Virus record (IMG/VR): IMGVR_UViG_3300025087_000689
From: a virus
Lineage: Duplodnaviria; Caudoviricetes
Strand: one strand, 5' to 3'
DNA length: 64,000 nucleotides
Part shown: positions 7,210 through 60,556 of the stretch, in pieces
Layout: every line of letters starts with the position of its first letter
Position numbering within the stretch: position 1 is the first letter of the stretch
Position numbers and translations under genes: made by a program
Notes under the pieces: generated by a model
Told to the model about the DNA's origin: nothing
The model's input: only the letters and a program-made list of their open reading frames with translations
The model's database searches: none

Positions 7210-7220
7210 GTATGATATAG

Positions 7221-7309
7221 AGGAGGAAACCGGACTCGAACCGATAAGACGAGTTTTAAATTCGTCGGTAGATTAGTAATCTACTGCCTTGCCATTAGGC
7301 TATTCCTCC
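7221..7309 (-). tRNA. tRNA-Ser(ACT)
   Basis: GGAGGAA/TTCCTCC acceptor, GTAGA-TTACTAA-TCTAC anticodon arm, long variable arm, TTCGAGT T loop. Confidence 0.85.
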
Positions 7310-11218: not shown

Positions 11219-11253
11219 AAACTTCTCGTAGATTTATAATCTACGAGAAGTTT
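11219..11253. terminator. perfect 16-bp hairpin
   Basis: AAACTTCTCGTAGATT-TAT-AATCTACGAGAAGTTT at the end of the DNA ligase gene. Confidence 0.7.
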
Positions 11254-12346
11254 ATTCGTAATCTCTAATTTCTATTAAAACTGGAAATCTTGGTATACCT
11301 TCATTAGTTTTTTGTTGAAATCTAATTATGGCTTTTTTTCCCACTAATTCTTGTAAATTTTGAAACCATTCTTTTCGCTGTTGACGGGATCCTTTTGGCC
11401 TTGCTTCAAATTCTTTGCCTTCTTTGGTAATAAGTTGGAATACGATTGTACCTTTATCATTTCCGGTTGCTTCTTTGCCACCTATAATTTCAAATTCATC
11501 GTCATCAAAATTCTTCCACTTTTGGAGATTTTTTGAACGGTGTTTGAATTCGTATTCACCTTCTTTATTTCTTATCATTATTCCTTCGTATCCATCTTGA
11601 ACAAATTGTTCATGATACTTAATGATCTCAGCTTCATTCTTGACTTCATATGTTGGAACACGAACTAAATACTGAGGATTTTCCATTTTATCGAAAAATT
11701 CTTTTATAAGTCTTGTTCTAGTTTCAAAAGGAAGACCTTCATTTGCCAAATCATAAATATAATATTTAAGTCTGAAAGGTTCTCTTGTTTTCTTAACAGC
11801 TGCAACTATATCCTGAAAAGATATTTCATTATGACAATATACTTCGCCGTCTAAAGGTGATTGTACTTCAGCTTCAAAGATTGAACATTCTTCATCAAAT
11901 TGATCAAGAGTAGTAAAAGGTTTACCGCCACGAGAATTAAAGGTGTGATCTGTATAGATGCAACGCACTCCGTTAAACTTTGGCTGCACGTAGCAAGGAA
12001 ACTTAATATCATGTTTACGTTCAATATACTTAAGAGCAAGCATAGGAAGCAGTAACTTCTGTGTCTTCTGAGCCTTCTTAGTCTCGGTATATCCTTCATC
12101 CTTCTTCTTATTCCACTTAGATTGAGCATCAGATACGGCTTGATCAAATGGAGTTGTTTCATTTTTCTTGCCGATATTCAAACCAACAGTAATCTCTCTG
12201 TGATTAACTGCTTGTTTCTTACCTTCAAGACCGTGTTCCATGGTAATAAGAACATCTTTAGCACGTTCATCTACGCGTATATTAATAAGTTTAGTGCGAC
12301 CTGTTGAACCTGTACCATAAAGTGTTGGAAAGATTTTACTTTTCAT
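11252..12346 (-). CDS. ATP-dependent DNA ligase
   Basis: QPKFNGVRC (motif I), LDGEVY, YDLA, YEGIMIRN, LQKWKNF, OB-fold RFPV. Confidence 0.92.
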   Translation of the reverse strand: MKSKIFPTLYGTGSTGRTKLINIRVDERAKDVLITMEHGLEGKKQAVNHREITVGLNIGKKNETTPFDQAVSDAQSKWNKKKDEGYTETKKAQKTQKLLLPMLALKYIERKHDIKFPCYVQPKFNGVRCIYTDHTFNSRGGKPFTTLDQFDEECSIFEAEVQSPLDGEVYCHNEISFQDIVAAVKKTREPFRLKYYIYDLANEGLPFETRTRLIKEFFDKMENPQYLVRVPTYEVKNEAEIIKYHEQFVQDGYEGIMIRNKEGEYEFKHRSKNLQKWKNFDDDEFEIIGGKEATGNDKGTIVFQLITKEGKEFEARPKGSRQQRKEWFQNLQELVGKKAIIRFQQKTNEGIPRFPVLIEIRDYE

Positions 12347-13062: not shown

Positions 13063-13695
13063 CTATATCTTAGCCGTATCTTTCGAGTTAGGCTTTCCGG
13101 GCGTAGTCTCTGAACCTTCCTCATTTGAAAGAGGCTCGGCTGCTGATTGTCCAATATCACTTATTTTTATAACCTTCGCACTCGTTTTTTCAAACCATGC
13201 TGTAGTTAAGTGATCTCTTAGGATATTCCAGCAATTTTCGGAATTACTACTATGATTTTTCAACCATAGCGACCAATGATGTTCGATATGTCTATGTAGA
13301 GCTCCATGTGATCTACGATCCATTAGACTTAGATTATTTGGTTCATTGTTTGTTGGATTATAGTCTAGATGATGTGTTACAAATCCTTTTGGAGTTGTAA
13401 TACCAAGTTGATCTATAATCTTTCTTGCTTCGTATCTTCCATGCTGCCTAATAGGATCATTTTTATGAATCTTACTTGGTCTGCATTTTGCATGAGATAC
13501 TTGGCCAATTCTCCAAATCTTCATGTCTTTCTTACAGATAGAACATTTTGATATACCAAAGTAATGTCTTCCTACTTTCTGGTATCTGATTCTTGCTCTT
13601 TCTGTATTGTAGGTTCTAGAGTGTTCTAGACATCTTTTTCTTTCATGAACACCTTTTTTTCCACAATCAATACAGAGTTTATCTTCCTTCTTCAT
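13063..13695 (-). CDS. intron-encoded HNH homing endonuclease
   Basis: VTHHLDYNPTNNEPNNLSLMDRRSHGALH; SD TGGAGG; reads through the intron core. Confidence 0.85.
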   Translation of the reverse strand: MKKEDKLCIDCGKKGVHERKRCLEHSRTYNTERARIRYQKVGRHYFGISKCSICKKDMKIWRIGQVSHAKCRPSKIHKNDPIRQHGRYEARKIIDQLGITTPKGFVTHHLDYNPTNNEPNNLSLMDRRSHGALHRHIEHHWSLWLKNHSSNSENCWNILRDHLTTAWFEKTSAKVIKISDIGQSAAEPLSNEEGSETTPGKPNSKDTAKI

Positions 13696-19698: not shown

Positions 19699-19918
19699 AA
19701 CTCGTTTTACTTGTGGTTTTGTAACTTGTTCAGTTTATTGCATATTGGTAGTTGTTTCAGGAGTTTTTGCTAGAACTATAGGTTGTGATATAGTTCTAGC
19801 TGATGTTATTCTTCTTGGAGTATTAGATGTAATACTTATAAAGCTCATGAACGCTATAGCAAATAAAATGACTACTCCAATCATGACCGTTACTTGTTTC
19901 ATACAAATCCTATATTAG
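19679..19918 (-). CDS. hypothetical basic protein
   Basis: 79-aa ORF slot in the operon; the ORF track strand label and coding frame were not independently confirmed. Confidence 0.25.
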
Positions 19919-20541
19919 ATGTTATATTTTAATAAGTAATCAGGCGATATTACTTTAAAACTAATCCGGTTTAAACTAAAATCGTTTAGCTCTCGGATTA
20001 CTATACCCTCTCTAAGATCATCAGGACCTGATTCGTAGGAGCCTTTCGACATCTCCACGAGTTTATCAATCGTGGTGTCTTTTAAAGATATAACATGATT
20101 CACAACTGGAACAGTTTTCAGTCCTAGGAAGGTGCAAACAAGACCCATCTCAACAGGATCTAAATATCTGTGTTGTTTGACGTTATATACGTTAAAAACA
20201 AACAGTTCAAGTTCTTTGAGCTTGCATCTGTTCTTCTGTATACCTGGACCTGCTATTTCACCTTGGATCCAAAGTGTTTCACCATAACTTTTGAGTTGTT
20301 TTTTGAGATTATATTTTATCGCGATTTTACTCCAGTTTGAGTTATCATCCTCTTTCTTTTTTAATTCGCGGGAGTATATTCCAAAGAAATCGCGGAAGAT
20401 ACCTTTCTTATAATAGTAAGTCGCAGAACAATTATGAACTAAAATACCGTTAGCAAAATAATTATGAAATGATGTTTCTATATCATATTTTTTAGAATTG
20501 TTTTCTATTTTCTTGATGAATACAATTTCATCCGTTTTCAT
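19915..20541 (-). CDS. split-intein C-fragment (37 aa) + RNA ligase C-extein
   Basis: YDIETSFHNYFANGILVHN|CSATYY; then QGEIAGPGIQKN, FVFNV, LREGIVIR, SFKVISPDYLLK ligase motifs. Confidence 0.9.
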   Translation of the reverse strand: MKTDEIVFIKKIENNSKKYDIETSFHNYFANGILVHNCSATYYYKKGIFRDFFGIYSRELKKKEDDNSNWSKIAIKYNLKKQLKSYGETLWIQGEIAGPGIQKNRCKLKELELFVFNVYNVKQHRYLDPVEMGLVCTFLGLKTVPVVNHVISLKDTTIDKLVEMSKGSYESGPDDLREGIVIRELNDFSLNRISFKVISPDYLLKYNI

Positions 20542-20542
20542 A

Positions 20543-21541
20543 TTAGTTCTCCATTTTTTTTAAGATTAGTTGTTCTAATTTTTTTTTATCTTTAAAACAA
20601 TTTTTAATTTCATCTTCCCAAATATACACAACTTTAAATCCTTTAGATTCTGCTAATTTCTTTTTTTCTTTGTCGTAGTCCCAAATTTCTCTTGCTGATT
20701 CAATTCCATAATTGAATTTGATAAGATCATCAGCCTTATATATGTTTGGATTAGCGTGCCAATAATCTCCATTTACTTCAATAATAATTTTATTATCGAT
20801 TAATATATCATAGATTCTTCGTTTTTTATTTGAAATTTTAATAACAAAATTTATACTGAATGGAATATTAAGTTTTAGTAAAATCTCTCTAATAGAATAT
20901 TCTAATGAAGAGTTATAAATTCCTCCACTTTTACAATTTGCTTCAATACATTTATCGTTTAGTAATGATTTATTTAGCCATTCATTTTTTTCTTCGTCTG
21001 TAATGTTCTTCCATTTATCTTTCATTACCTTTGAAAAGTATTCTGTTCGTGTCACTCCATATTTTGTTAGTAGGTTACTATCTAAACTTGTTTTTATTTT
21101 TTCAATAATTTCTTTTACTTGAAATATATTATCTATATCATTACCATACTTTTTATGTAATGTATTTTTAGTTGTAGGTAGTTGAAATGTATTTTTAACT
21201 CCATATTTTTTTATACATGTATTTTTATATTTGTCTCTTGTTTCTTTGAGATTTGTGGATTCTTTAATAGTTCTTTTTTTAATATTAAAATATTTTAGCA
21301 AAAATAATGTAAAAGAATAATTAATATCGTATTCTTTTTTTAAGTCTGGTAAAGATTTTTTATTATTAATATATAAATCTTCTAATTTTTCTTTATTACA
21401 TAAAGTAGGATAATTATGTTTAATACATAAATACTTTAGTTCAGTAACATTTGTACTTGTTTTTTCTTTACATCTTCTTAGATGAGAGGTTTCTCCTCGT
21501 GGTTTTAGTTCTCTAGAACAAAACGGACATTTAAGTATCAC
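20543..21541 (-). CDS. free-standing Vsr-like (DUF559-type) homing endonuclease
   Basis: YDILIDNKIIIEVNGDYWHANP...DKEKKKLAESKGFKVVYIWE; KKYGV repeats; own promoter and SD. Confidence 0.85.
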   Translation of the reverse strand: MILKCPFCSRELKPRGETSHLRRCKEKTSTNVTELKYLCIKHNYPTLCNKEKLEDLYINNKKSLPDLKKEYDINYSFTLFLLKYFNIKKRTIKESTNLKETRDKYKNTCIKKYGVKNTFQLPTTKNTLHKKYGNDIDNIFQVKEIIEKIKTSLDSNLLTKYGVTRTEYFSKVMKDKWKNITDEEKNEWLNKSLLNDKCIEANCKSGGIYNSSLEYSIREILLKLNIPFSINFVIKISNKKRRIYDILIDNKIIIEVNGDYWHANPNIYKADDLIKFNYGIESAREIWDYDKEKKKLAESKGFKVVYIWEDEIKNCFKDKKKLEQLILKKMEN

Positions 21542-21564
21542 ATCAACCTCCTTAGTATATCTAT

Positions 21565-21593
21565 ATTATACTAAAAAGATTGAATGAATTCTA
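21565..21593 (-). promoter_or_regulatory. promoter for the intervening endonuclease
   Basis: TAGAAT-N17-TATAAT, then AAGGAGG. Confidence 0.55.
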
Positions 21594-22472
21594 GTTTTCT
21601 AGTAAAATATCTCCTTCTTTCAAATCTTCTACTTTGCGATAACAGTAAGAATTTGGTAAATATATCTTATGATTACCTGTAACTTTTATGATTTTACCAT
21701 TTTTTGTGGTGATTTCATACCATTCGTGTTTATTTTCATTTATAAAAGTATTTTTAATTCTAGTTAATTGTATTTTATTAGTTGTAGGATTTACACCAAA
21801 TACTTTACCTTTATATTTAGTGTCGCAAATTTCTTTTATTGTTTTTAGTCCTTTATCTGTGTGAAGTATTGTATTTTCATCAAGACAACCATCAATTTTA
21901 GTTGTAACATACCACTTTTTATCTGAGTTAAGATGAGGTTCAAGATCACGGAAGATAGCTTGTACCCTTGTTTCATCTGTATGAGGAATGCAAGAAGGCC
22001 AACCTTTATCCTTCTTTCTGAAGATAAGAGGTCGTATCTTACGATATAACTTGAACTTACAAAGAAAATGATCAATCGGATGTTGTCTTTTAGCAGTAGG
22101 TGAACATTCACCAGCTTCATCTGTATCGATCTTAGTTACACCTATGATGTCTGTTACATCCATTCCCTCAATAGGGTCTACGATTGCAGGAAAGTCCTTT
22201 AAAGGCATGATAAGACCTTGTGATGTCACACCACGCATTTTCAAAGTTTTGACCTTGTAATGCCTTTTTTCCATAAAGGAGAAGGCTGGAATTATAGGTA
22301 ATCTTGAATCGATCTCAAAATAGATCACAAGATCCCCGGTTTTAATACCGTTATCTATAGCTGTTATACATTTCCATCCATTACCATGCATACTAGCTAA
22401 GACTATTTTATCTGCACCAGGAATAACTTCAAGTGAACTGATTTTTTGTATTGATGCTAGCTGACGAGTCAT
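21591..22472 (-). CDS. RNA ligase (DRB0094/Rnl2-like) N-extein + split-intein N-fragment (98 aa, 21594-21887)
   Basis: LASIQKI...GADKI...YFEIDS, HTDETRVQ, TTKIDG|CLDENT...KVTGNHKIY...LKEGDILLEN*. Confidence 0.9.
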   Translation of the reverse strand: MTRQLASIQKISSLEVIPGADKIVLASMHGNGWKCITAIDNGIKTGDLVIYFEIDSRLPIIPAFSFMEKRHYKVKTLKMRGVTSQGLIMPLKDFPAIVDPIEGMDVTDIIGVTKIDTDEAGECSPTAKRQHPIDHFLCKFKLYRKIRPLIFRKKDKGWPSCIPHTDETRVQAIFRDLEPHLNSDKKWYVTTKIDGCLDENTILHTDKGLKTIKEICDTKYKGKVFGVNPTTNKIQLTRIKNTFINENKHEWYEITTKNGKIIKVTGNHKIYLPNSYCYRKVEDLKEGDILLEN

Positions 22473-23317: not shown

Positions 23318-23390
23318 TCCGACTGCAGGAACTTGCATCCTGTTATTAGGTCCCACAAACCTATGCATTACTATATATGCTACAGAAGGG
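23318..23390 (-). tRNA. tRNA-His(GTG), degenerate
   Basis: TAGGT-TTGTGGG-ACCTA; T loop TGCAAGT; two acceptor mismatches. Confidence 0.65.
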
Positions 23391-28841: not shown

Positions 28842-29141
28842 CTAATGTCCATACCTATTATATATGGGTTGTTGAGTTGGTATTGTTCGCGAATTTAAAA
28901 GACTATCAAGTGTATGAACTAGTCGTATTTGACAGTATTTGCAGTTACCCTTGTGAACAAGGAATTGTATTTCTGAGAAACTAGCTGGACCAATGTACTC
29001 ACAACCTTCTATCTCAAATATCCAAAGATTTTGGGTATTATCGCAGTTTGTCACTTGTTCTTCAAGTTTGTAAGACTTGATTAGCTCATGATCAGCTGCA
29101 CAGACTAAGATGCATAGTAACAGAATGATTCTAATCATCAT
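28842..29141 (-). CDS. secreted or membrane-anchored hypothetical protein
   Basis: signal peptide; FEIEGCEY...HKGNCKYC motif. Confidence 0.7.
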   Translation of the reverse strand: MMIRIILLLCILVCAADHELIKSYKLEEQVTNCDNTQNLWIFEIEGCEYIGPASFSEIQFLVHKGNCKYCQIRLVHTLDSLLNSRTIPTQQPIYNRYGH

Positions 29142-30739
29142 TGTTCTCCTAATAGTTCAAGTATTGGACCTTCGGATTTTTCAAAATGTACTGAATCGAA
29201 CACTGGTCCGTGGATGCTACCACTATCCGTTATGTGGTGTCCTTTAATCTTGATAATTGAATCATTATTAATGACTTCATCAATGTTTTTAGCAAACCAC
29301 TTACGCTCATAGTCGGTGAATCCAGATCCAACATCTGTGTTACCAAGACCATCTATCTTACAGTGTAATGCACCAATCCTGGTCTTATCGATTTTACTAG
29401 ACTTGGTTTCTAGTGGTTCCCATCCCACGATTTTACAATCATAGAAGTCAGTCTTCTTGATTTTCCACCATGCTTGTGCTTCAGGATTAAACTGTGGATC
29501 AGGAGTTACTTCATCAAGAAGTTTTATTACTAGACCTTCACCCCTACGTTTTTCGACCACAGCCTTCCATCCATTTCTAACCGAGTCAAACTGCTCGGGA
29601 ACATACACGTAAGTATGGTTGTCAGCGATCTTTGCCATGATTTTATGCTTCTCACGGTAGGTAAGAGATTTGGCCGATCTGCCATTAACCTTTGCAAGAT
29701 CATAAATAACGATGGCTGATTGCCCTTTCTGAATTTGTTGTTCTGAACGAGAACGCAGTGGATTTGATATGAGTGAGAATTTGGCCAATAGATGTGGATG
29801 CTCAAATCCGTAGTCTTTAAATACTTGCCCACGCGTAATTCTGCGTCCAGGAACATAGATGAGTTCACCCCGAGCAATCGTCCCGTGAAATTCTGAGTGG
29901 ATATCATCTCTAATGTCTGGGAACTTATCTTGGAGAAATATTGTACTTTCACGTTTGCCTTCTCTCCACGAGTAGATTTGGTTACCACTTTTGTCGAATC
30001 TGATGAGATTGGCTGCACCATCGATTTTTGCCTCGATAATATAGGCTTGGTTATTTTCCTTAAGTTTCTTTTCGAGATCAAATGCTTTAGGTGGGACATC
30101 TCTTCCCGTGGTACCAGCAATGAGTTTAAACTTGTTCTTACCTTTGATTTGCGGCTCATCATATTTCCTTCGAGAACAGATCCAATTACCTTTTGAATCC
30201 TTTGGATCTATAAGGGCAAAACGACCAGTGATACTCCTGTTTGTGTCAGTTTTATAGATATTGAATAAAATTTCGCCTTTCGAATGGGTTTTGAGTAATT
30301 CAATATCTTCATTGAAGACAACCGTTTGAGTACCTCTACCGTATCCTTCCTGGATAATACCTGACCAGTTGTATCCATATTTACCTTTTGAATGTTGAGG
30401 TTGACGAGCGAATGATGTGCGAACTACATCTCCCTGAGGGAATAGTCTTTCTATTTCTCCTTTGGATACAGCTCCACGAAAGATCTCTATGCCATCTGCA
30501 TCTACAATAGATATGTCATGATGAAGATGTAATGCTTCGTGTCGTTGAATATATAATTTACCAACTCTTGATTTTTTGTTCTCAGGTATTTTATTGAAAT
30601 TATTAAGACGTATTGCTGGTTTATACCTATCTCGTATGAACCGACGAGTACGAGATTTTAACCATGGTTCGACAAAGGTGCTGAATAACTCAGCACCAAT
30701 GTCTACCATAGTGAGAACAACCGCAATCTTCTTACCCAT
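29138..30739 (-). CDS. LigD-like 3'-phosphoesterase + ATP-dependent ligase fusion
   Basis: QRHEALHLHHDISI and QHSKGKY PE-like motifs; EAKIDG, RGELI, YDLA, GEGLVIK, WWKIK, VGSGFTD; start approximate. Confidence 0.75.
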   Translation of the reverse strand: MGKKIAVVLTMVDIGAELFSTFVEPWLKSRTRRFIRDRYKPAIRLNNFNKIPENKKSRVGKLYIQRHEALHLHHDISIVDADGIEIFRGAVSKGEIERLFPQGDVVRTSFARQPQHSKGKYGYNWSGIIQEGYGRGTQTVVFNEDIELLKTHSKGEILFNIYKTDTNRSITGRFALIDPKDSKGNWICSRRKYDEPQIKGKNKFKLIAGTTGRDVPPKAFDLEKKLKENNQAYIIEAKIDGAANLIRFDKSGNQIYSWREGKRESTIFLQDKFPDIRDDIHSEFHGTIARGELIYVPGRRITRGQVFKDYGFEHPHLLAKFSLISNPLRSRSEQQIQKGQSAIVIYDLAKVNGRSAKSLTYREKHKIMAKIADNHTYVYVPEQFDSVRNGWKAVVEKRRGEGLVIKLLDEVTPDPQFNPEAQAWWKIKKTDFYDCKIVGWEPLETKSSKIDKTRIGALHCKIDGLGNTDVGSGFTDYERKWFAKNIDEVINNDSIIKIKGHHITDSGSIHGPVFDSVHFEKSEGPILELLGEQ

Positions 30740-31109
30740 GTGAACAAACAGCTGCTGTTGCTGCGGCAAGTTCAATTGCACGCGGATGAGCAGCCGTTGT
30801 TTCAATCTCATCGGTGTCAGTGGTGTCCAACTGGCAAACGTTCCACAGAACGTTAAAGACTTCCATACCGATTGTGATCGCGGTGAAGATGATTAAGAAG
30901 TACGAGAAGCAAAGAGCAATGAGACCAATCAAAGATGTCATCGCGAACGGAAGCAGGAGCACATCTGCTGCATAAAGACCGAAAATCTCGAATGTGCACA
31001 TTACAAGACCAGCACCGATTACGGCGACAGCCTTGTGAAAATGCCGTTTGAAAAAGTTAAGAGCCATGCTTGGAATCGACTTGATTCCGTTCCAGATTTT
31101 GCGAATCAT
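30732..31109 (-). CDS. membrane protein
   Basis: SD AGGAG; 2-3 TM segments. Confidence 0.7.
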   Translation of the reverse strand: MIRKIWNGIKSIPSMALNFFKRHFHKAVAVIGAGLVMCTFEIFGLYAADVLLLPFAMTSLIGLIALCFSYFLIIFTAITIGMEVFNVLWNVCQLDTTDTDEIETTAAHPRAIELAAATAAVCSHG

Positions 31110-50926: not shown

Positions 50927-53900
50927 ATGAAAGCTAAAGAGAAAAAAGATTTATTAATTAAGGGTTTTACCCCTGATGAGATACAACAATTAGAGATACA
51001 ACAAAGTCCTTCTCTTTGGGCTGAAACATATTTATATGATCCCGAAAAACCAGGTAAATCATTACAATTGAGATCATATCAAAAAGATATATTAGAATGC
51101 AAAAGTAAAAAGAAGGTACTAAGATTAGGTCGAAGATCAGGGAAAAGTATTTGTTTGTGTATTGAATCTTTATACAAAGCTTTTATAACTGAAAATACCA
51201 GAGTTCTTATTTGCACACCTTATAAAATTCAGACCAGAAACTTATGGAAAGATGGTTTTCAGAAATTAATTAAAGGTAATAAACTTCTTGAGAGTTCTAT
51301 AATTAGAATGGGACAAAATCCCTATCTTATTGAATTTAAAAATGGTGCCAGAATAATGGGATTAACTGCTGGTTCTTCTACTGGAAATAAGGGTGGATCT
51401 ATTAGAGGTTCATCTGCTGATCATTTAATAATGGATGAGATTGATTACATGGGTGAAGAAGCAATCCAATCTATTATGGCTATTACCGCCACAAATAAAA
51501 ACACAACTCTAACTATATCATCTACACCAACTGGTAGACGAGAATTCTTTTATAATGCGTGTACAAATAAAAATTTAGGGTTCCAGGAATTTTATTTTCC
51601 ATCATCTTCAAGTCCTGAATGGACATCTATAGAACAAGCAAAAAAACTAGGATTACCTCTGCATGAATCGCAAGAATACGTATTTAGAAATATGTATCCC
51701 GAAGATGTTTTTATTAGAGAGTATATGGCCGTTTTTGGTGAAGAATCTCAAGGGGTTTTTAAACACAAATACATCGACGCGGCTTTAGTGAAATATGATC
51801 CTGATAGCGAAGTAGCCGATTCTATGGGTTTTAAATGGTTCTGTGGGGCTGAACAGAATGAGGATAATCTATATTCGATGGGTGTTGATTGGAATGGCAC
51901 AAAGGTTGGAACTCAAATAGTTATTACAGAATATTGCCGAGTATCAACTAATGTTAATTATGTTATAGAAGATGATAATGGAAAAACGATAAAACAAACA
52001 TCAACAGTTATTAAAAAATATAGAGTGTTTTATCGTGAATCTGTGTCAATGGAAGAAATGACGCAATTAGAATCAATACATAGAATTATAGAACTAACGA
52101 AGAAATTCAAGATAGATCATATATATGTTGATAATGGTTTTGGAACTTGTGTTGCCCCGGATACATTGATATATACAAATAGAGGGGTTAAACCAATTTC
52201 AAATATAATCATCGGCGATTTAGTTATGACGAAAAATGGAACATTTGAAAGAGTTTTGGATACAATAACTAGAAAAGATATTAAAGACTCATATAAATTA
52301 ATTCCATCTAAATGTTTAGCAACAACTGCAAGTTTTTGTCATCCTTTTTTAACTTATAGAAGTTCTAATAGATTTAAAGATAAAAATATTAATGAGGGAA
52401 ATTTAGTTTGGAGGCAGTGTTCTGAAATAGATATAAAAAAAGATTTTATAGCGATTAGTAAGACAAAAAACCTGGAAAATAAAACAAGTGATATTATTGA
52501 TCTTTATCAATTATTAAAAAATGTACAAGGATTAAAGCACGATAAAATGAATATATGGTTAAGTTCATCATATAAAATAAAAGATCGAAATTATTTAAGT
52601 GCTTATGAATTAAGTAAAATATGTTCCACTTCTAAAATTATGATAACCAGAATTCGTAGTAAACTAAGAAATAAGTTAAAGTTAACAGAACATCAAATGA
52701 GGATATATAAGAAAAATAAAAACGCTCTTAATGTTTTACCGGAAATAATAAAACTTCCCAGATATATCGATATATTATCTGAAGATTTCCAACGAATTTA
52801 TGGTTGGTTTTTGTCTGAAGGTAATTGTAATACTAATAGTATTGAAATATCTCAAAAAGTTGGAAATCACACTGAAGAGATTAATAGTTTAAAAAAATCA
52901 ATTTCTAACATTTTTGGATACTCTTTTTTATCTGAATATATAAAAAAAGAAGTTAGACGAATTGTTATTAGTTCAAAATTAATTTCTATTATTTTTGAGA
53001 CTCTTGGTGGTAAATATTGTTATAATAAATTCATTCATCCTGAATTTATGAAACATCCGAAATCATTAGGTGTATTTTTTAATTCGATAATATTAGGAGA
53101 TGGTAGTAAGGTTAAGAATAAAATTGGATATTGTATTAGTTTAACTAGTTCATCATTAATATTTCAATTAAGACAAATATTAATAGATAATGGAATTCTT
53201 CCATCTATTAATTTTTTAGGGAAAAGAAGTAAAGAACATAATGATCAATGGTTACTTCAAATATTCGGAACCTTTGAAATAATGAAAAAATTCAATAATT
53301 TTACCAAATTACCTTTAAAAAATACGGAAAGAAAAACTAGAAACAAATATATAGAAATTGATAATTATTTTTTAGTCCCCATAAGAAAATTAGAAAAAAT
53401 TGAATCTTGTTCCGGTCTTGTTGATATTAAAGTCGATAACGAACACAGTTTTTGTGGCAATGGAGTAGTTCTACATAATACGAATATCGAAGAGTTAAAA
53501 TTATACGGTAAGAAATTTCCTGAATCTGATATGAATCGTAAACTAGTTGCAATAGATTTTGCCAGTAAGATATCTATTTTTGATCCTTATTCTAAAGAAG
53601 AAGTGGATAAGGCGATGAAACCTTTTACAGTAAATAATGCTGTAACTTGTCTCGAAAGAGGAGAATTAATTCTTCCTGATATTGAAGATGAAAAAGTAAA
53701 ATTGATTGGTCAAATGAGAGAATATAGAATTGAGAAAATTAGTACTTTAGGAATACCAAGATATTCCGAAGACAACGATCATATTCTAGATGCTTTCATG
53801 CTTTCTCTTCTAGCATTTCAGATGGAATATAGTACCTTAATACGACTGGCACACACCAGTCAGATAGCTATATCTAATAAACCTACTCTTCTTATGCGTG

Positions 53901-54139
53901 GACTTAGTGAAGTCCAAGACAGAACTACATCATTGAAGAAAGATAAGTTGCAAGAAATGGGTGTTCCTAAGAGACAACCTGCATTTGGTACTGAGAAGTA
54001 TCATTCGGATAGTCGTGGTGGTCATATGGATTACGAAGACTTATATAAAACGTCTCCGACTACATCGACTCCATTTACCGGACAACCATTGAGATCATCC
54101 TGGAATAAAATAAACGCTCCAACCCGGACTAATTTTTAA
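50927..54139 (+). CDS. terL: terminase large subunit (intein-containing)
   Basis: RLGRRSGKS Walker A, IMDEIDY Walker B, ISSTPTG, GVDWN, DHILDA. Confidence 0.93.
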   Translation: MKAKEKKDLLIKGFTPDEIQQLEIQQSPSLWAETYLYDPEKPGKSLQLRSYQKDILECKSKKKVLRLGRRSGKSICLCIESLYKAFITENTRVLICTPYKIQTRNLWKDGFQKLIKGNKLLESSIIRMGQNPYLIEFKNGARIMGLTAGSSTGNKGGSIRGSSADHLIMDEIDYMGEEAIQSIMAITATNKNTTLTISSTPTGRREFFYNACTNKNLGFQEFYFPSSSSPEWTSIEQAKKLGLPLHESQEYVFRNMYPEDVFIREYMAVFGEESQGVFKHKYIDAALVKYDPDSEVADSMGFKWFCGAEQNEDNLYSMGVDWNGTKVGTQIVITEYCRVSTNVNYVIEDDNGKTIKQTSTVIKKYRVFYRESVSMEEMTQLESIHRIIELTKKFKIDHIYVDNGFGTCVAPDTLIYTNRGVKPISNIIIGDLVMTKNGTFERVLDTITRKDIKDSYKLIPSKCLATTASFCHPFLTYRSSNRFKDKNINEGNLVWRQCSEIDIKKDFIAISKTKNLENKTSDIIDLYQLLKNVQGLKHDKMNIWLSSSYKIKDRNYLSAYELSKICSTSKIMITRIRSKLRNKLKLTEHQMRIYKKNKNALNVLPEIIKLPRYIDILSEDFQRIYGWFLSEGNCNTNSIEISQKVGNHTEEINSLKKSISNIFGYSFLSEYIKKEVRRIVISSKLISIIFETLGGKYCYNKFIHPEFMKHPKSLGVFFNSIILGDGSKVKNKIGYCISLTSSSLIFQLRQILIDNGILPSINFLGKRSKEHNDQWLLQIFGTFEIMKKFNNFTKLPLKNTERKTRNKYIEIDNYFLVPIRKLEKIESCSGLVDIKVDNEHSFCGNGVVLHNTNIEELKLYGKKFPESDMNRKLVAIDFASKISIFDPYSKEEVDKAMKPFTVNNAVTCLERGELILPDIEDEKVKLIGQMREYRIEKISTLGIPRYSEDNDHILDAFMLSLLAFQMEYSTLIRLAHTSQIAISNKPTLLMRGLSEVQDRTTSLKKDKLQEMGVPKRQPAFGTEKYHSDSRGGHMDYEDLYKTSPTTSTPFTGQPLRSSWNKINAPTRTNF
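52148..53479 (+). mobile_element. intein with LAGLIDADG endonuclease (444 aa) in the terminase nuclease domain
   Basis: GFGT|CVAPDT ... YGWFLSEGN, ILGDGS ... VLHN|T. Confidence 0.92.
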
Positions 54140-57562: not shown

Positions 57563-60556
57563 ATGACTAATTCGATCTTGTCGCGAATTAAGGGTTTCTT
57601 TAGTGTACCTGTGCAAGATATATATGAACAGGATAAAGCAACTCTTTCATTAGTAACTAATACTAAAGCCACTGGTAATCCTAATCCAACGCCCGTGTCT
57701 ACTAAAGCTGTTCATGCTGGTATGGTATACAATCCATCTCTATCCAGTAAAAATGGCGAGGAAATGTATACTCCACCAGAGTATAATCTCTCTGTTATTG
57801 CCAATTGTTTAGATACAGATAGTTATTTTCGCAGAGCTGTTGAGAAGTACGTTGAGCTTATTTGGAAAGCTGGTTATAGTTTCTATGGTAAAAATCCTAA
57901 TGCTGTAGCTTATGTTCGAAAGAGATTTGAACAAATTGGTGAAGTTACCGCGAACCCGACAGATCAATTATTTAGAGATATTAGTTATCAACTAGTTGAG
58001 TATTCTAATGTTTATGTTTCCAAAGTGCGAAATATGAAAGCATCCGGCGGAAAAGAACGTAGAACTTTTACGGGACAGTTGTTAACACCAGTTGCTGGAT
58101 ACTTCATTGAAGATTCTGTTTCTATGCAGTTAGCTGTAAAAGAAAATGGCGATCCGATAGGTTATAAACAATGTATTCCTGGTTCTAGAGAATGGAAGAT
58201 CTGGAGACCTTGGAATATGATTCATATGGTCCATTCGAGAAAACCAGGACTTCGAGTTGGCACCCCTATGGTTTGGCCGGTGCTTGATGATATTAGGGCT
58301 TTACGTAGAATAGAACAGAACGTTGAACTTCTTATCTTCCAACATACAATTCCACTCTTTCAATATATAGTGGGAACAGAAAATAGACCAGCTCAACCAG
58401 ATGAAATCGTATCAGTAAAACAAACAGTTGAGAGAATGCCTCCAAATGGTTGTGTTGTAACTCCTGAAAGACATGAGATTAAAGCTATCGGATTAGAAGG
58501 AAGTGCTATTGATGTTAGTACTTACCTTGATTACTATAAGAACAGAGTTCTTTCTGGTCTTGGTATGTCTGGTGTTGGTATGGGTGAAGGTTGTCATGAT
58601 GAAAAAACAGAAACTTTAACTGAACATGGATGGAAAAAAATTAATGAAATAGGTTTAACTGATAGAATAGCCACATGTAATCCCATATCGAGAAAAATAG
58701 AATATCATATTCCAAATGAACGTTTTGTTGCAAGATATACAGGTGAAATGGTTTGCATGAATACTAAACACGTTAATTTTAAGGTAACACCTAATCATGA
58801 AATGTGGATATGTAATGATCCTAAAATTAATACATGGAAGAAAATAAAAGCAGAAGAATTAATAGGTCATGGACCAGAAAATTTTTCCTTTTTAGAAAAA
58901 ACTGAAGGAAAGATTAATTCTGATATAAATGAATTTATAACTATTAATAACATTCCTTATACATGTAAGAATACTAAACAATTAAAATTTCAACCATTAA
59001 TATTTAATAAAAAATATTTTTCTGAATTTTTAGGTTACTTTGTATCAGAAGGTTCTTTAGAAACATCTAATCATAAATTCAGAATAATTTTAACTCAGAA
59101 AAAAGAAGATATCTTACAAAAAATGATAGAGTGTTTAGAAAAATTAAGTATAAACTATTCTAAATCTATTGATAAGGGTGGTTGTACTAATATAAGTATC
59201 TATCATAAATCATTATATATTTATTTATTAAATGAATGTGGTAAAGGTTGTTATAATAAAAAAGCACCTAAATTTTTAAAAAATGAATCTGATGAAATTA
59301 TTAATATGTTTTTAGAAGCCGCAATTGATGGTGATGGAACAAGATGTAAGAAAAAAGGAAGTTCGCATAGTACTTATTATACTACATCAGAACAGTTAGC
59401 AGATGATATACAAGAATTATCTATTTTAGTTGGGCGTACAGCAAAAAAGAAAAAATATTATCATAATGAAGATAAAAAAGGAATAGGATATATTTATAGG
59501 ATTTTTATAAGTAACCGAAATTCGATTTTTAGACATGTAAAAAGAAAAGATTTATATAGAGAATATTATCATGGTTATATATATTGTTTTAATGTACCAA
59601 ACCATTTATTTTTAACTAGGAGAGAAGGTAAAGTAACAATTCAAGGAAATTCTACTTCTAATAAAGGTACGGCTATAGTCCTTGATAAACACCTAGTTAA
59701 TAGTTGTGGTATGTTTCAACAGGTCTTTAAAATGAACGTTGATGAATTCATGATTAAGGAGTTACTTGCTGAAGGTGGTTTTGATACGAGTTATATTAAT
59801 GAAGATAATAAGGTTGGTATTCTATTCCCGCCCATTGATACCGAGGAACAACGAGCCAAAGAGAATCATTATGCTCAAATGTATACTCAACATGCTGTCA
59901 ATGAAGATGAAATGAGAAAAGAATTTGGCATGGAACCTATGCAAGATGGTGAGAGAGATAAGGATTATTTTGAGTTAATTTTAAAACCTCTGGAAATGAT
60001 TAAGGCAAAACTTGCCCAGGAGACGGCAATAATTGCCGGACAAGCAAAACCAGTAGTAACTAAGTCACTTTCAGGTGCTTCCAAAGTACATCGTCCAAAT
60101 AAAGTTGGAGCTGCCAAAGAAAGACCGACTAACCAGCACGGACAACTTGGAGCTAAACCTAGAATTCCAAAGAATGATGAAGTAGAACAACTTCTTGATA
60201 TCTTTAAAGATACAAAAAATGATCTTATAGATTCCTGTATAGATGCTGTAAAGGAAGACGTTCCACTCCTAACTAAGTTAACTGGTATTAGAAAATACAA
60301 TTTTGAGAACTCAAAATCCATTATTGAAAAAAAGAAAGCTGAATCAACATTAGAAGATAAAGAAGCTTTATATGGAACAGCTATAAGGACTTTGGATGAG
60401 TTATATGATAGATTTAGCAAGATTCAAGACATGAAACATGTTGATGATCTTACAGTTAGAATCAGTTCTTTATTTTCTACTTTAAGTGTTCGAATTGAAG
60501 GTTATTACGTAGATGATGTTGAAGATACTATAAGTGACTTGAATTCAGATAGTTAA
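57563..60556 (+). CDS. portal protein (intein-containing)
   Basis: PEYNLSVI...DSYFRRAV, IHMVHSRKPGLRVGTP...DDIRALRRIE, VTPERHEIK; position between terL and protease. Confidence 0.85.
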   Translation: MTNSILSRIKGFFSVPVQDIYEQDKATLSLVTNTKATGNPNPTPVSTKAVHAGMVYNPSLSSKNGEEMYTPPEYNLSVIANCLDTDSYFRRAVEKYVELIWKAGYSFYGKNPNAVAYVRKRFEQIGEVTANPTDQLFRDISYQLVEYSNVYVSKVRNMKASGGKERRTFTGQLLTPVAGYFIEDSVSMQLAVKENGDPIGYKQCIPGSREWKIWRPWNMIHMVHSRKPGLRVGTPMVWPVLDDIRALRRIEQNVELLIFQHTIPLFQYIVGTENRPAQPDEIVSVKQTVERMPPNGCVVTPERHEIKAIGLEGSAIDVSTYLDYYKNRVLSGLGMSGVGMGEGCHDEKTETLTEHGWKKINEIGLTDRIATCNPISRKIEYHIPNERFVARYTGEMVCMNTKHVNFKVTPNHEMWICNDPKINTWKKIKAEELIGHGPENFSFLEKTEGKINSDINEFITINNIPYTCKNTKQLKFQPLIFNKKYFSEFLGYFVSEGSLETSNHKFRIILTQKKEDILQKMIECLEKLSINYSKSIDKGGCTNISIYHKSLYIYLLNECGKGCYNKKAPKFLKNESDEIINMFLEAAIDGDGTRCKKKGSSHSTYYTTSEQLADDIQELSILVGRTAKKKKYYHNEDKKGIGYIYRIFISNRNSIFRHVKRKDLYREYYHGYIYCFNVPNHLFLTRREGKVTIQGNSTSNKGTAIVLDKHLVNSCGMFQQVFKMNVDEFMIKELLAEGGFDTSYINEDNKVGILFPPIDTEEQRAKENHYAQMYTQHAVNEDEMRKEFGMEPMQDGERDKDYFELILKPLEMIKAKLAQETAIIAGQAKPVVTKSLSGASKVHRPNKVGAAKERPTNQHGQLGAKPRIPKNDEVEQLLDIFKDTKNDLIDSCIDAVKEDVPLLTKLTGIRKYNFENSKSIIEKKKAESTLEDKEALYGTAIRTLDELYDRFSKIQDMKHVDDLTVRISSLFSTLSVRIEGYYVDDVEDTISDLNSDS
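58592..59650 (+). mobile_element. intein with LAGLIDADG endonuclease (353 aa) in portal
   Basis: GMGEG|CHDEKTE..., VTPNHEM, FLGYFVSEG, AIDGDG, VTIQGN|S. Confidence 0.9.

Follow-up and report, generated by a model that had tools for sequence, protein, structure and literature searches.

The 64,000-nt window analysed here (the whole stretch of DNA taken from phage record IMGVR_UViG_3300025087_000689; Duplodnaviria; Caudoviricetes) contains, at positions 19915-22472, an RNA-ligase gene that is divided between two genes, each of which also encodes one half of an intein, with the gene for a free-standing homing endonuclease lying between them. According to the list of open reading frames (ORFs) and their translations, three ORFs on the minus strand fill this interval, namely the ligase's N-terminal part fused to the N-terminal intein half (IntN), the endonuclease, and the C-terminal intein half (IntC) fused to the ligase's C-terminal part. 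The features of the locus are as follows.

21591-22472, minus strand: N gene, 293 aa, encoding the RNA-ligase N-extein and IntN and ending in a TAG stop (ORF list, Pfam, PHROG).
21888-22472, minus strand: N-extein, aa 1-195, ending TTKIDG, with the OB domain, the TDETR motif and motif I (K192-I-D-G195), which holds the adenylation lysine (alignment).
21594-21887, minus strand: IntN, 98 aa (residues 196-293, CLDENT to LLEN), with Cys1 (C196) and block B T-G-N-H.
21538-21587, minus strand: hairpin in the 5' untranslated region (5'-UTR) of the endonuclease gene, which pairs the Shine-Dalgarno sequence and the GTG and holds the TATAAT (RNAfold).
21570-21565, minus strand: TATAAT, within the endonuclease 5' hairpin.
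21553-21547, minus strand: Shine-Dalgarno sequence AAGGAGG, inside the same hairpin.
21541-21539, minus strand: GTG start of the endonuclease, paired within the hairpin.
20543-21541, minus strand: gene for a free-standing EDxHD (Vsr-like) homing endonuclease, 332 aa, GTG start (model, Foldseek, alignment).
19915-20541, minus strand: C gene, 208 aa, encoding IntC and the RNA-ligase C-extein (Pfam, PHROG).
20431-20541, minus strand: IntC, 37 aa, ending GILVHN, with block F Asp20 and block G His36-Asn37, followed by a +1 Cys.
19915-20430, minus strand: C-extein, 171 aa plus stop, beginning CSATYYY; the part of the nucleotidyltransferase that follows motif I, with for example WIQGEIAG, REGIVIR and SFKVISP.

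An initial annotation of the locus, made from its DNA letters, had given lengths of 98 aa for IntN, 37 aa for IntC, 332 aa for the endonuclease and 366 aa for the joined ligase, and the ORFs and their translations confirm all four. The start coordinates of the three ORFs leave remainders of 2, 1 and 0 on division by three, which places each ORF in its own frame and means that read-through would be unable to join them. The N gene is separated from the endonuclease gene by a 49-nt untranslated spacer. It could be argued that the layout is an assembly or annotation artefact and that the true gene has a contiguous intein with an in-frame endonuclease domain, since most known inteins are contiguous, as is the LAGLIDADG intein at the same site in a protein of Mycobacterium phage Bobby (see below). 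Against this stand the three ORFs in three frames and the spacer with its hairpin and Shine-Dalgarno sequence. Furthermore, 14 recorded contigs, up to 221,625 bases long, encode the identical C-half protein, so a single faulty assembly is not the source of the layout, and the same layout occurs in independent metagenomes. We therefore regard an artefact as hardly conceivable.

The two outer genes both match RNA ligases. In Pfam, the N gene matches the PHA02142 OB domain (PF21189, E 1.5e-21) and Intein_splicing (PF14890, E 2.6e-10), and the C gene matches RNA_ligase (PF09414, E 4e-16) as well as Intein_splicing. Both match PHROG 968, RNA ligase (E 5.8e-33 for the N gene and 2e-31 for the C gene), and PHROGs calls the middle gene a homing endonuclease. 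When the exteins were joined in silico (residues 1-195 of the N protein and 38-208 of the C protein), the product was 366 aa long, compared with 363-380 aa for intein-free relatives, which are up to 69% identical to the N-extein. This joined product is collinear with four intein-free orthologues over approximately 362 columns at 62-65% identity, and the junction is gapless, the sole change there being a Cys in the window where the four orthologues carry Gln. The prediction that joining the N and C exteins would rebuild motif I is thus borne out in silico.

In the joined protein an OB domain at the N-terminus precedes an adenylyltransferase domain whose motif I is KxDG, which is the domain order of the Rnl5 group, and one intein-free orthologue (P0005) matches the Naegleria gruberi RNA ligase NgrRnl (PDB 5cot) with an E of 7.8e-26, its motif I aligning to VTVKLDGSS. 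The best NCBIfam model is TIGR02306 (DRB0094 family), to which the halves score 48.9 and 43.3 bits and an intact orthologue 109.9 bits, all of them below the equivalog cut-off of 151.15 bits. The ligase is therefore described as a divergent member of the Rnl5 group, or Rnl5-type, rather than as an equivalog. By domain order and motifs the host enzyme is a divergent Rnl5-type ATP-dependent ligase whose N-terminal OB module precedes a C-terminal adenylyltransferase. In these respects it is like the Rnl5 ligases of Naegleria gruberi and Deinococcus radiodurans, including their KxDG motif I, but unlike them it is in two pieces and belongs to a divergent phage branch. In the alignment the motif I lysine lies in the N half and all other nucleotidyltransferase motifs lie in the C half, and therefore neither half would be a complete enzyme.

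The ligase locus lies within a region that holds 10 tRNA genes and other ligase-like genes. An RNA-repair role has been proposed for cluster J mycobacteriophages (PMC3706429), and the tRNA-rich surroundings would fit a similar role here. On the contig of a related 182-kb phage the ligase gene is uninterrupted, with an adenylosuccinate synthetase gene a few kb downstream, as in the window, and the element can therefore be present or absent among related phages. The tRNA-rich arm of the window also carries two further genes with an ATP-dependent DNA-ligase domain, at 11252-12346 and 29138-30811, both on the minus strand; the 557-aa protein encoded by one of these two also matches RNA_ligase weakly.

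The two intein halves together have the residues of class 1 (HINT) inteins, namely block A Cys1, block B TxxH, block F Asp, block G His-Asn and a +1 Cys. IntN matches the NCBIfam model intein_Nterm (TIGR01445) at 35.3 bits (cut-off 24.5) and IntC matches intein_Cterm (TIGR01443) at 23 bits (cut-off 15.6). When aligned with alleles that are 40-66% identical to those of the window, Cys1 and the T and H of block B TxxH were invariant across 10 divergent IntN alleles and Y19, D20, H36 and N37 across 13 IntC alleles, and the +1 residue was Cys in all aligned IntC alleles but one, which has Ser. The fractured gene and naturally split class 1 intein put forward in the initial annotation are therefore supported by Pfam, by NCBIfam, by the invariant splicing residues and by the three-ORF layout.

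The reported resemblance of IntC to that of NrdJ-1 also holds (PDB 8ubs; phmmer E 1.2e-5, 19/28 aligned residues identical), and IntN matches DnaB mini-inteins with an E of about 0.002. The intein shares with NrdJ-1 (PDB 8ubs, 9omb) the IntC block, a class 1 chemistry based on Cys1 and a split at the canonical point, the position that an endonuclease domain would take. In contrast, its IntN is weakly alike (E 0.097), and its host protein and insertion site differ. Since host and site differ, the intein of the window is not an NrdJ-1 allele, and the kinetics of NrdJ-1 are not transferable to it. The suggestion that trans-splicing would be fast and possibly orthogonal is an extrapolation from the likeness of IntC alone.

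IntN and IntC are predicted to pair, with an ipSAE of 0.87 compared with 0.01 for the best control, and the three prediction runs share at least 95% of their contacts with a partner pLDDT of 75-76. Of 80 solved complexes 58 reached the mark used, as did 2 of 110 mismatched pairs. The predicted interface is large (220-226 contacts), and this could also be expected if the intein halves were a non-covalent dimerisation device and the ligase fragments worked unspliced. Fractured genes without inteins that work by assembly are documented (PMC3045599), and the mobE-split NrdA of phage Aeh1 assembles through short interaction peptides (PMC2677866). However, the residues of the splicing chemistry (Cys1, TxxH, block F Asp and His-Asn) are invariant in divergent alleles and no residue other than Cys or Ser occurs at +1, a pattern that a docking domain alone would not keep. 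Moreover, a 135-aa HINT domain would stay wedged beside motif I. We consider it very improbable that the halves serve for dimerisation without splicing.

The protein encoded between the two halves was modelled with AlphaFold on 50 homologues, giving a mean pLDDT of 88.7. The top Foldseek match of the model was 3r3p, the catalytic domain of I-Bth0305I (E 4.4e-4, probability 1.00, TM by target 0.70), followed by Vsr of E. coli (1cw0 and 1vsr, both with probability 1.00), and sequence searches agreed, although weakly (3r3p, E 0.015; TIGR00632 vsr, E 1.5e-4). The nuclease domain comprises approximately aa 210-332, where the motif reads IIEVNGDYWH. Across the 50 aligned sequences D245, E255 and H262 never vary, and conservation of D290 is 90% or more. 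Since these residues occupy the positions of the EDxHD catalytic set described for Vsr-like homing endonucleases (PMC3239194; PMC2677866) and the fold is Vsr-like, we assign the endonuclease to the EDxHD/Vsr-like family, and the free-standing Vsr-like endonuclease proposed earlier is supported by the Foldseek matches and these residues.

Like I-Bth0305I (PDB 3r3p; PMC3239194), the endonuclease has the Asp, Glu, His, Asp set and combines an N-terminal DNA-binding region with a C-terminal Vsr-like nuclease, the two nuclease domains being approximately 22% identical. Unlike I-Bth0305I, which is intron-encoded and has NUMOD/HTH repeats, it is free-standing inside an intein, and the N-terminal two thirds of the protein are helical with a CCHC-type finger and KYGxxN repeats. 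In Pfam this N-terminal region has a weak match to DUF7487 (23.2 bits, below the 27-bit cut-off) and no NUMOD match. The endonuclease family is very large: a search at E <= 1e-3 gives 5104 representative clusters, of which 157 remain at E <= 1e-30, and the only GenBank phages in which a full-length relative turned up are two uncultured ones of 735 kb.

The AAGGAGG Shine-Dalgarno sequence lies 5 nt ahead of the GTG start of the endonuclease gene, and the hairpin that encloses both has a folding energy of -20.3 kcal/mol (RNAfold; z -5.5), a stability that 0 of 200 shuffled sequences equalled. Comparable 5' hairpins that mask ribosome sites are present in the relatives L001 and L002. The initial annotation had credited the endonuclease gene with its own promoter and Shine-Dalgarno sequence, and only the latter was found as described. 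The TATAAT hexamer lies in the hairpin without a -35 element and the promoter scan called no promoter before the gene, while a promoter of its own is plausible. At the other end, the TAA of the endonuclease gene is separated by 1 nt from the ATG of the C gene (TAA-T-ATG), and a GGAG lies 7 nt upstream of this ATG, inside the 3' end of the endonuclease gene. This arrangement suggests coupled translation, and the C gene is probably translationally coupled to the endonuclease gene. The ligase operon may terminate at a 12-bp palindromic stem (19769-19800), which lies some 115 nt downstream of the C gene.

The base composition of the locus changes at the intein boundaries. The N-extein (37.1% GC) and C-extein (35.5%), together 36.3%, match the window as a whole (36.0%), whereas GC falls to 24.8% in IntN (13% at third codon positions, GC3), 22.9% in the endonuclease gene and 21.6% in IntC, or 23.2% from IntN through IntC. 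The low GC of the insert speaks for a foreign origin, as of an acquired mobile element. Such an invasion might have left the ligase as a decaying pseudogene, with the phage perhaps reliant on other ligase-like genes, such as the two with ATP-dependent ligase domains at 11252-12346 and 29138-30811; a related locus, L007, is heavily broken, with a truncated endonuclease gene and an additional break in the C-extein. At the locus studied here, however, the exteins are full length without stops or frameshifts, are 62-65% identical to intact orthologues and retain all nucleotidyltransferase motifs, the catalytic residues of the intein are intact and the endonuclease keeps all its invariant residues. 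Furthermore, at least six divergent loci retain the layout intact, and decay of the ligase therefore appears most improbable.

We consider it very likely that the locus would prove to be a genuine fractured gene of an uncultured giant phage and a working trans-splicing system. We propose that a mobile element, consisting of a class 1 intein split by a free-standing EDxHD/Vsr-like endonuclease gene, invaded the gene of a nick-sealing RNA ligase right after K-I-D-G. The N gene would then supply the OB domain, the adenylation lysine and IntN, and the C gene would supply IntC and the remainder of the nucleotidyltransferase domain. IntN and IntC would associate into a HINT fold and splice in trans to produce the 366-aa ligase, with Cys in place of the Gln or Ser usual after KxDG. 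Because neither half alone holds the full active site, ligase activity would be dependent on splicing. The endonuclease would cut intein-free alleles in co-infecting relatives, and repair would copy the whole element into them (homing). Translation of the endonuclease would be held down by the 5' hairpin masking its ribosome site, a block that may be relieved by late transcripts starting at the internal TATAAT, as shown for mobE of Aeh1.

Several points weigh against this proposal. While the analysis shows the anatomy, conservation, folds and recurrence, it is from these that we infer splicing, cleavage, timing and ligase activity. The ligase scores below the equivalog cut-off of its best NCBIfam model, and the timing proposed for the endonuclease relies on a hexamer that has no -35 element and that the promoter scan did not call. 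The +1 Cys of the spliced ligase would directly adjoin the motif I glycine, with a possible effect on activity. In addition, the favourable IntN-IntC prediction may reflect likeness to solved split inteins rather than binding by this copy.

Fractured genes with split inteins and Vsr-like endonucleases were described in 2009 by Dassa, London, Stoddard, Schueler-Furman and Pietrokovski (PMC2677866). Their host types were gp41, IMPDH, DnaE, NrdA, NrdJ, DNA ligase, terminase and one unknown protein, and the loci include gp41-1 to -8, NrdJ-1, NrdA, IMPDH-1, DnaE, DNA ligase and terminase. In 15 of the 16 loci there was a 5' hairpin, many with a late-promoter-like element, and the authors connected these hairpins with the way in which translation of the mobE endonuclease of phage Aeh1 has been shown to be controlled. 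The present locus has the features of such a gene, including fusions of host parts to intein halves, an intervening free-standing ORF, collinear exteins, a hairpin and abutting gene ends. It is like the 2009 loci in its gene order (the host N part joined to IntN, then a Vsr-like free-standing endonuclease, then IntC joined to the host C part), in the hairpin in the endonuclease 5'-UTR, in the stop that abuts the downstream start, in its phage origin and in its insertion at a catalytic motif. It differs in its host, an ATP-dependent Rnl5-type RNA ligase, which is outside the eight host types of that study.

The insertion site itself has a precedent. A class 1 LAGLIDADG intein of cluster J phages (cluster 73) is listed under 'RtcB-like RNA ligase IPR021122' in a 2025 preprint (bioRxiv 10.1101/2025.01.02.630785, supplementary file 8), and gp147 of Mycobacterium phage Bobby, of 800 aa, has a weak match to the PHA02142 OB domain, a PF09414 domain and a contiguous LAGLIDADG intein. 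As in the window, the host combines OB and PF09414 domains and the insertion directly follows the motif I glycine (KLHG/C in Bobby, KIDG/C in the window). The C-terminal blocks are also similar, with 17 of 22 residues alike from (S/T)KYDIET to the terminal VHN, the Bobby block being YDIETETHNFFANHVLVHN followed by the +1 Ser. Unlike that of the window, the Bobby intein is contiguous with an in-frame LAGLIDADG domain, has Ser at +1 and is carried by cultured actinobacteriophages, and its N-terminal splicing region and exteins are approximately 21% identical to those of the window. This means that the site was already catalogued for a contiguous intein. The initial annotation had proposed a new split intein in an RNA-ligase host and had suggested searching for inteins catalogued at motif I of RNA ligases. 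The split form does fall outside the host types of 2009, but the site is not new, given the contiguous intein of Bobby gp147 and the preprint, and the split form is itself widespread in metagenomes. In the literature we found no report of a split intein in an RNA ligase, the one relevant match being the actinobacteriophage preprint.

The best 120 relatives of the N protein were surveyed, and the loci L001, L002/L003, L004, L005 and L014 were inspected in full. At least 14 clusters among these 120 are proteins with an N-extein and IntN, and they reveal two insertion sites in Rnl5-type ligases. Site A, the one occupied in the window, immediately follows KxDG, and site B lies approximately 25 residues upstream, after TDE(E/T)R. 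The three-gene layout occurs at site A in L001 and L002/L003 and at site B in L004, L005 and L014, and it also occurs in a third ligase family in L092, giving six loci in all. Among the best 80 Rnl5-type loci of IMG/VR, 2 were fractured. No fractured RNA ligase was found among GenBank phage records and the DNA of the window has no near match among GenBank phages, where the closest relatives of IntN, about 30-33% identical, are in one Streptococcus phage and in terminases of Brucella phages. Two apparent candidates were rejected. The RNA ligase of Arthrobacter phage Racecar seemed to align into IntN, but the gene encodes an intein-free ligase of 322 aa, and in Pseudomonas phage phiPMW an HNH gene lies after the ligase gene and not inside it.

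IntN sequences that are 51-56% identical to that of the window occur in other ligase families. In P0337 (L093:2732-3913) IntN follows EKLDG of an Rnl1-like (PF09511) ligase and an endonuclease of the same family is encoded downstream, and in P0338 and P0339 a related IntN follows KTDG of divergent OB-ligases. The third family (L092:1628-4118; P0341 with P0181) is cut after KMDGEN with the full three-gene layout; by eye, the N-terminal region of the L092 ligase has a Cys/His pattern reminiscent of HNH nucleases. In P0183 an IntC approximately 55% identical to that of the window is fused to the C part of an NAD-dependent DNA ligase (ILVHN/CVGDIVTKN), and this may be a DNA-ligase split intein of the kind mentioned by Dassa et al. 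Thus, IntN sequences about 50% identical to that of the window are found after KxDG in Rnl5-type, Rnl1-like (PF09511) and divergent OB-ligases, two residues past KxDG in the ligase with the Cys/His pattern, and at the TDExR motif of Rnl5.

It is possible, although we put it at somewhat short of probable, that one lineage of split intein and EDxHD endonuclease has moved among different covalent nucleotidyltransferases by repeated jumps. When 21 IntN sequences from the various sites and hosts were placed in a maximum-likelihood tree, it had no starred branch and left 14 of its 18 inner forks open, so no conclusion can be drawn from it on the order of jumps or on grouping by site as opposed to host. 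Were the conserved coding DNA of motif I the sequence that the endonuclease recognises, homing would proceed across enzyme families and not between alleles of one gene. Empty-site sequences were recovered from L090 and L091, and the motif I DNA in 59 empty sites reads GARAARnTnGAYGG. The empty site of the related 182-kb phage (L091:5001-6104), ATTGACGGTCAAT, is a perfect 6+1+6 palindrome around the Gly codon. A palindromic homing target as a general feature was rejected, since 1 of the 59 empty sites has it, probably by chance. A GIY-YIG gene lies just upstream of the L091 ligase gene.

In the heavily broken locus mentioned above (L007:3420-6789, IMGVR_UViG_3300010342_000303) an Rnl5-type ligase is interrupted at each of the two intein sites. 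The motif I Gly is replaced at the second of these by the intein Cys (EKID/C). Of the endonuclease no more than a 62-aa remnant survives, and a further interruption, of about 480 nt, lies within the C-extein. The L007 ligase is either a multi-piece gene or a decaying gene.

For intein biology, these loci would extend the host range of naturally split inteins to ATP-dependent RNA ligases. The layout has been known since 2009, the endonuclease family is known and even the insertion site has a precedent, and current concepts are unchanged. The most interesting reading, which we hold tentatively as being a little less than evenly supported, is that one lineage of intein and endonuclease has spread through several ligase families by inserting at or beside the sequence that codes for motif I. 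The same lineage at the catalytic lysine motif of several ligase families would be a useful case for studying how homing elements shift sites and, if that reading is true, it would provide a ready panel of related natural split inteins in different extein contexts. For protein engineering, the intein of the window and at least 20 divergent natural relatives, with an IntC of approximately 34-40 aa and Cys or Ser at +1, are candidate trans-splicing pairs. For phage biology, the locus would represent an RNA-repair enzyme, encoded among the tRNA genes of a phage, that becomes active only after ligation at the protein level.

Elsewhere in the window, the large terminase subunit (1070 aa; 50927-54139, plus strand) has a contiguous intein, with Hint_2 and Intein_splicing matches at approximately aa 381-851 and an IntC-like end at 53390-53479, and local GC falls there to 27%. 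A 997-aa protein (57563-60556, plus strand) has a LAGLIDADG_3 domain, no other Pfam match and an IntN-like start at 58592-58816 (tblastn E 0.002), and it probably holds another contiguous intein in a structural gene. An HNH endonuclease gene lies at 13063-13695. With regard to the tRNA genes, Rfam calls one at 23318-23389 (minus strand) that is absent from the ARAGORN list, and the ARAGORN calls include, at 7220-7309 (minus strand), a tRNA-Ser whose anticodon, ACT, is unusual.

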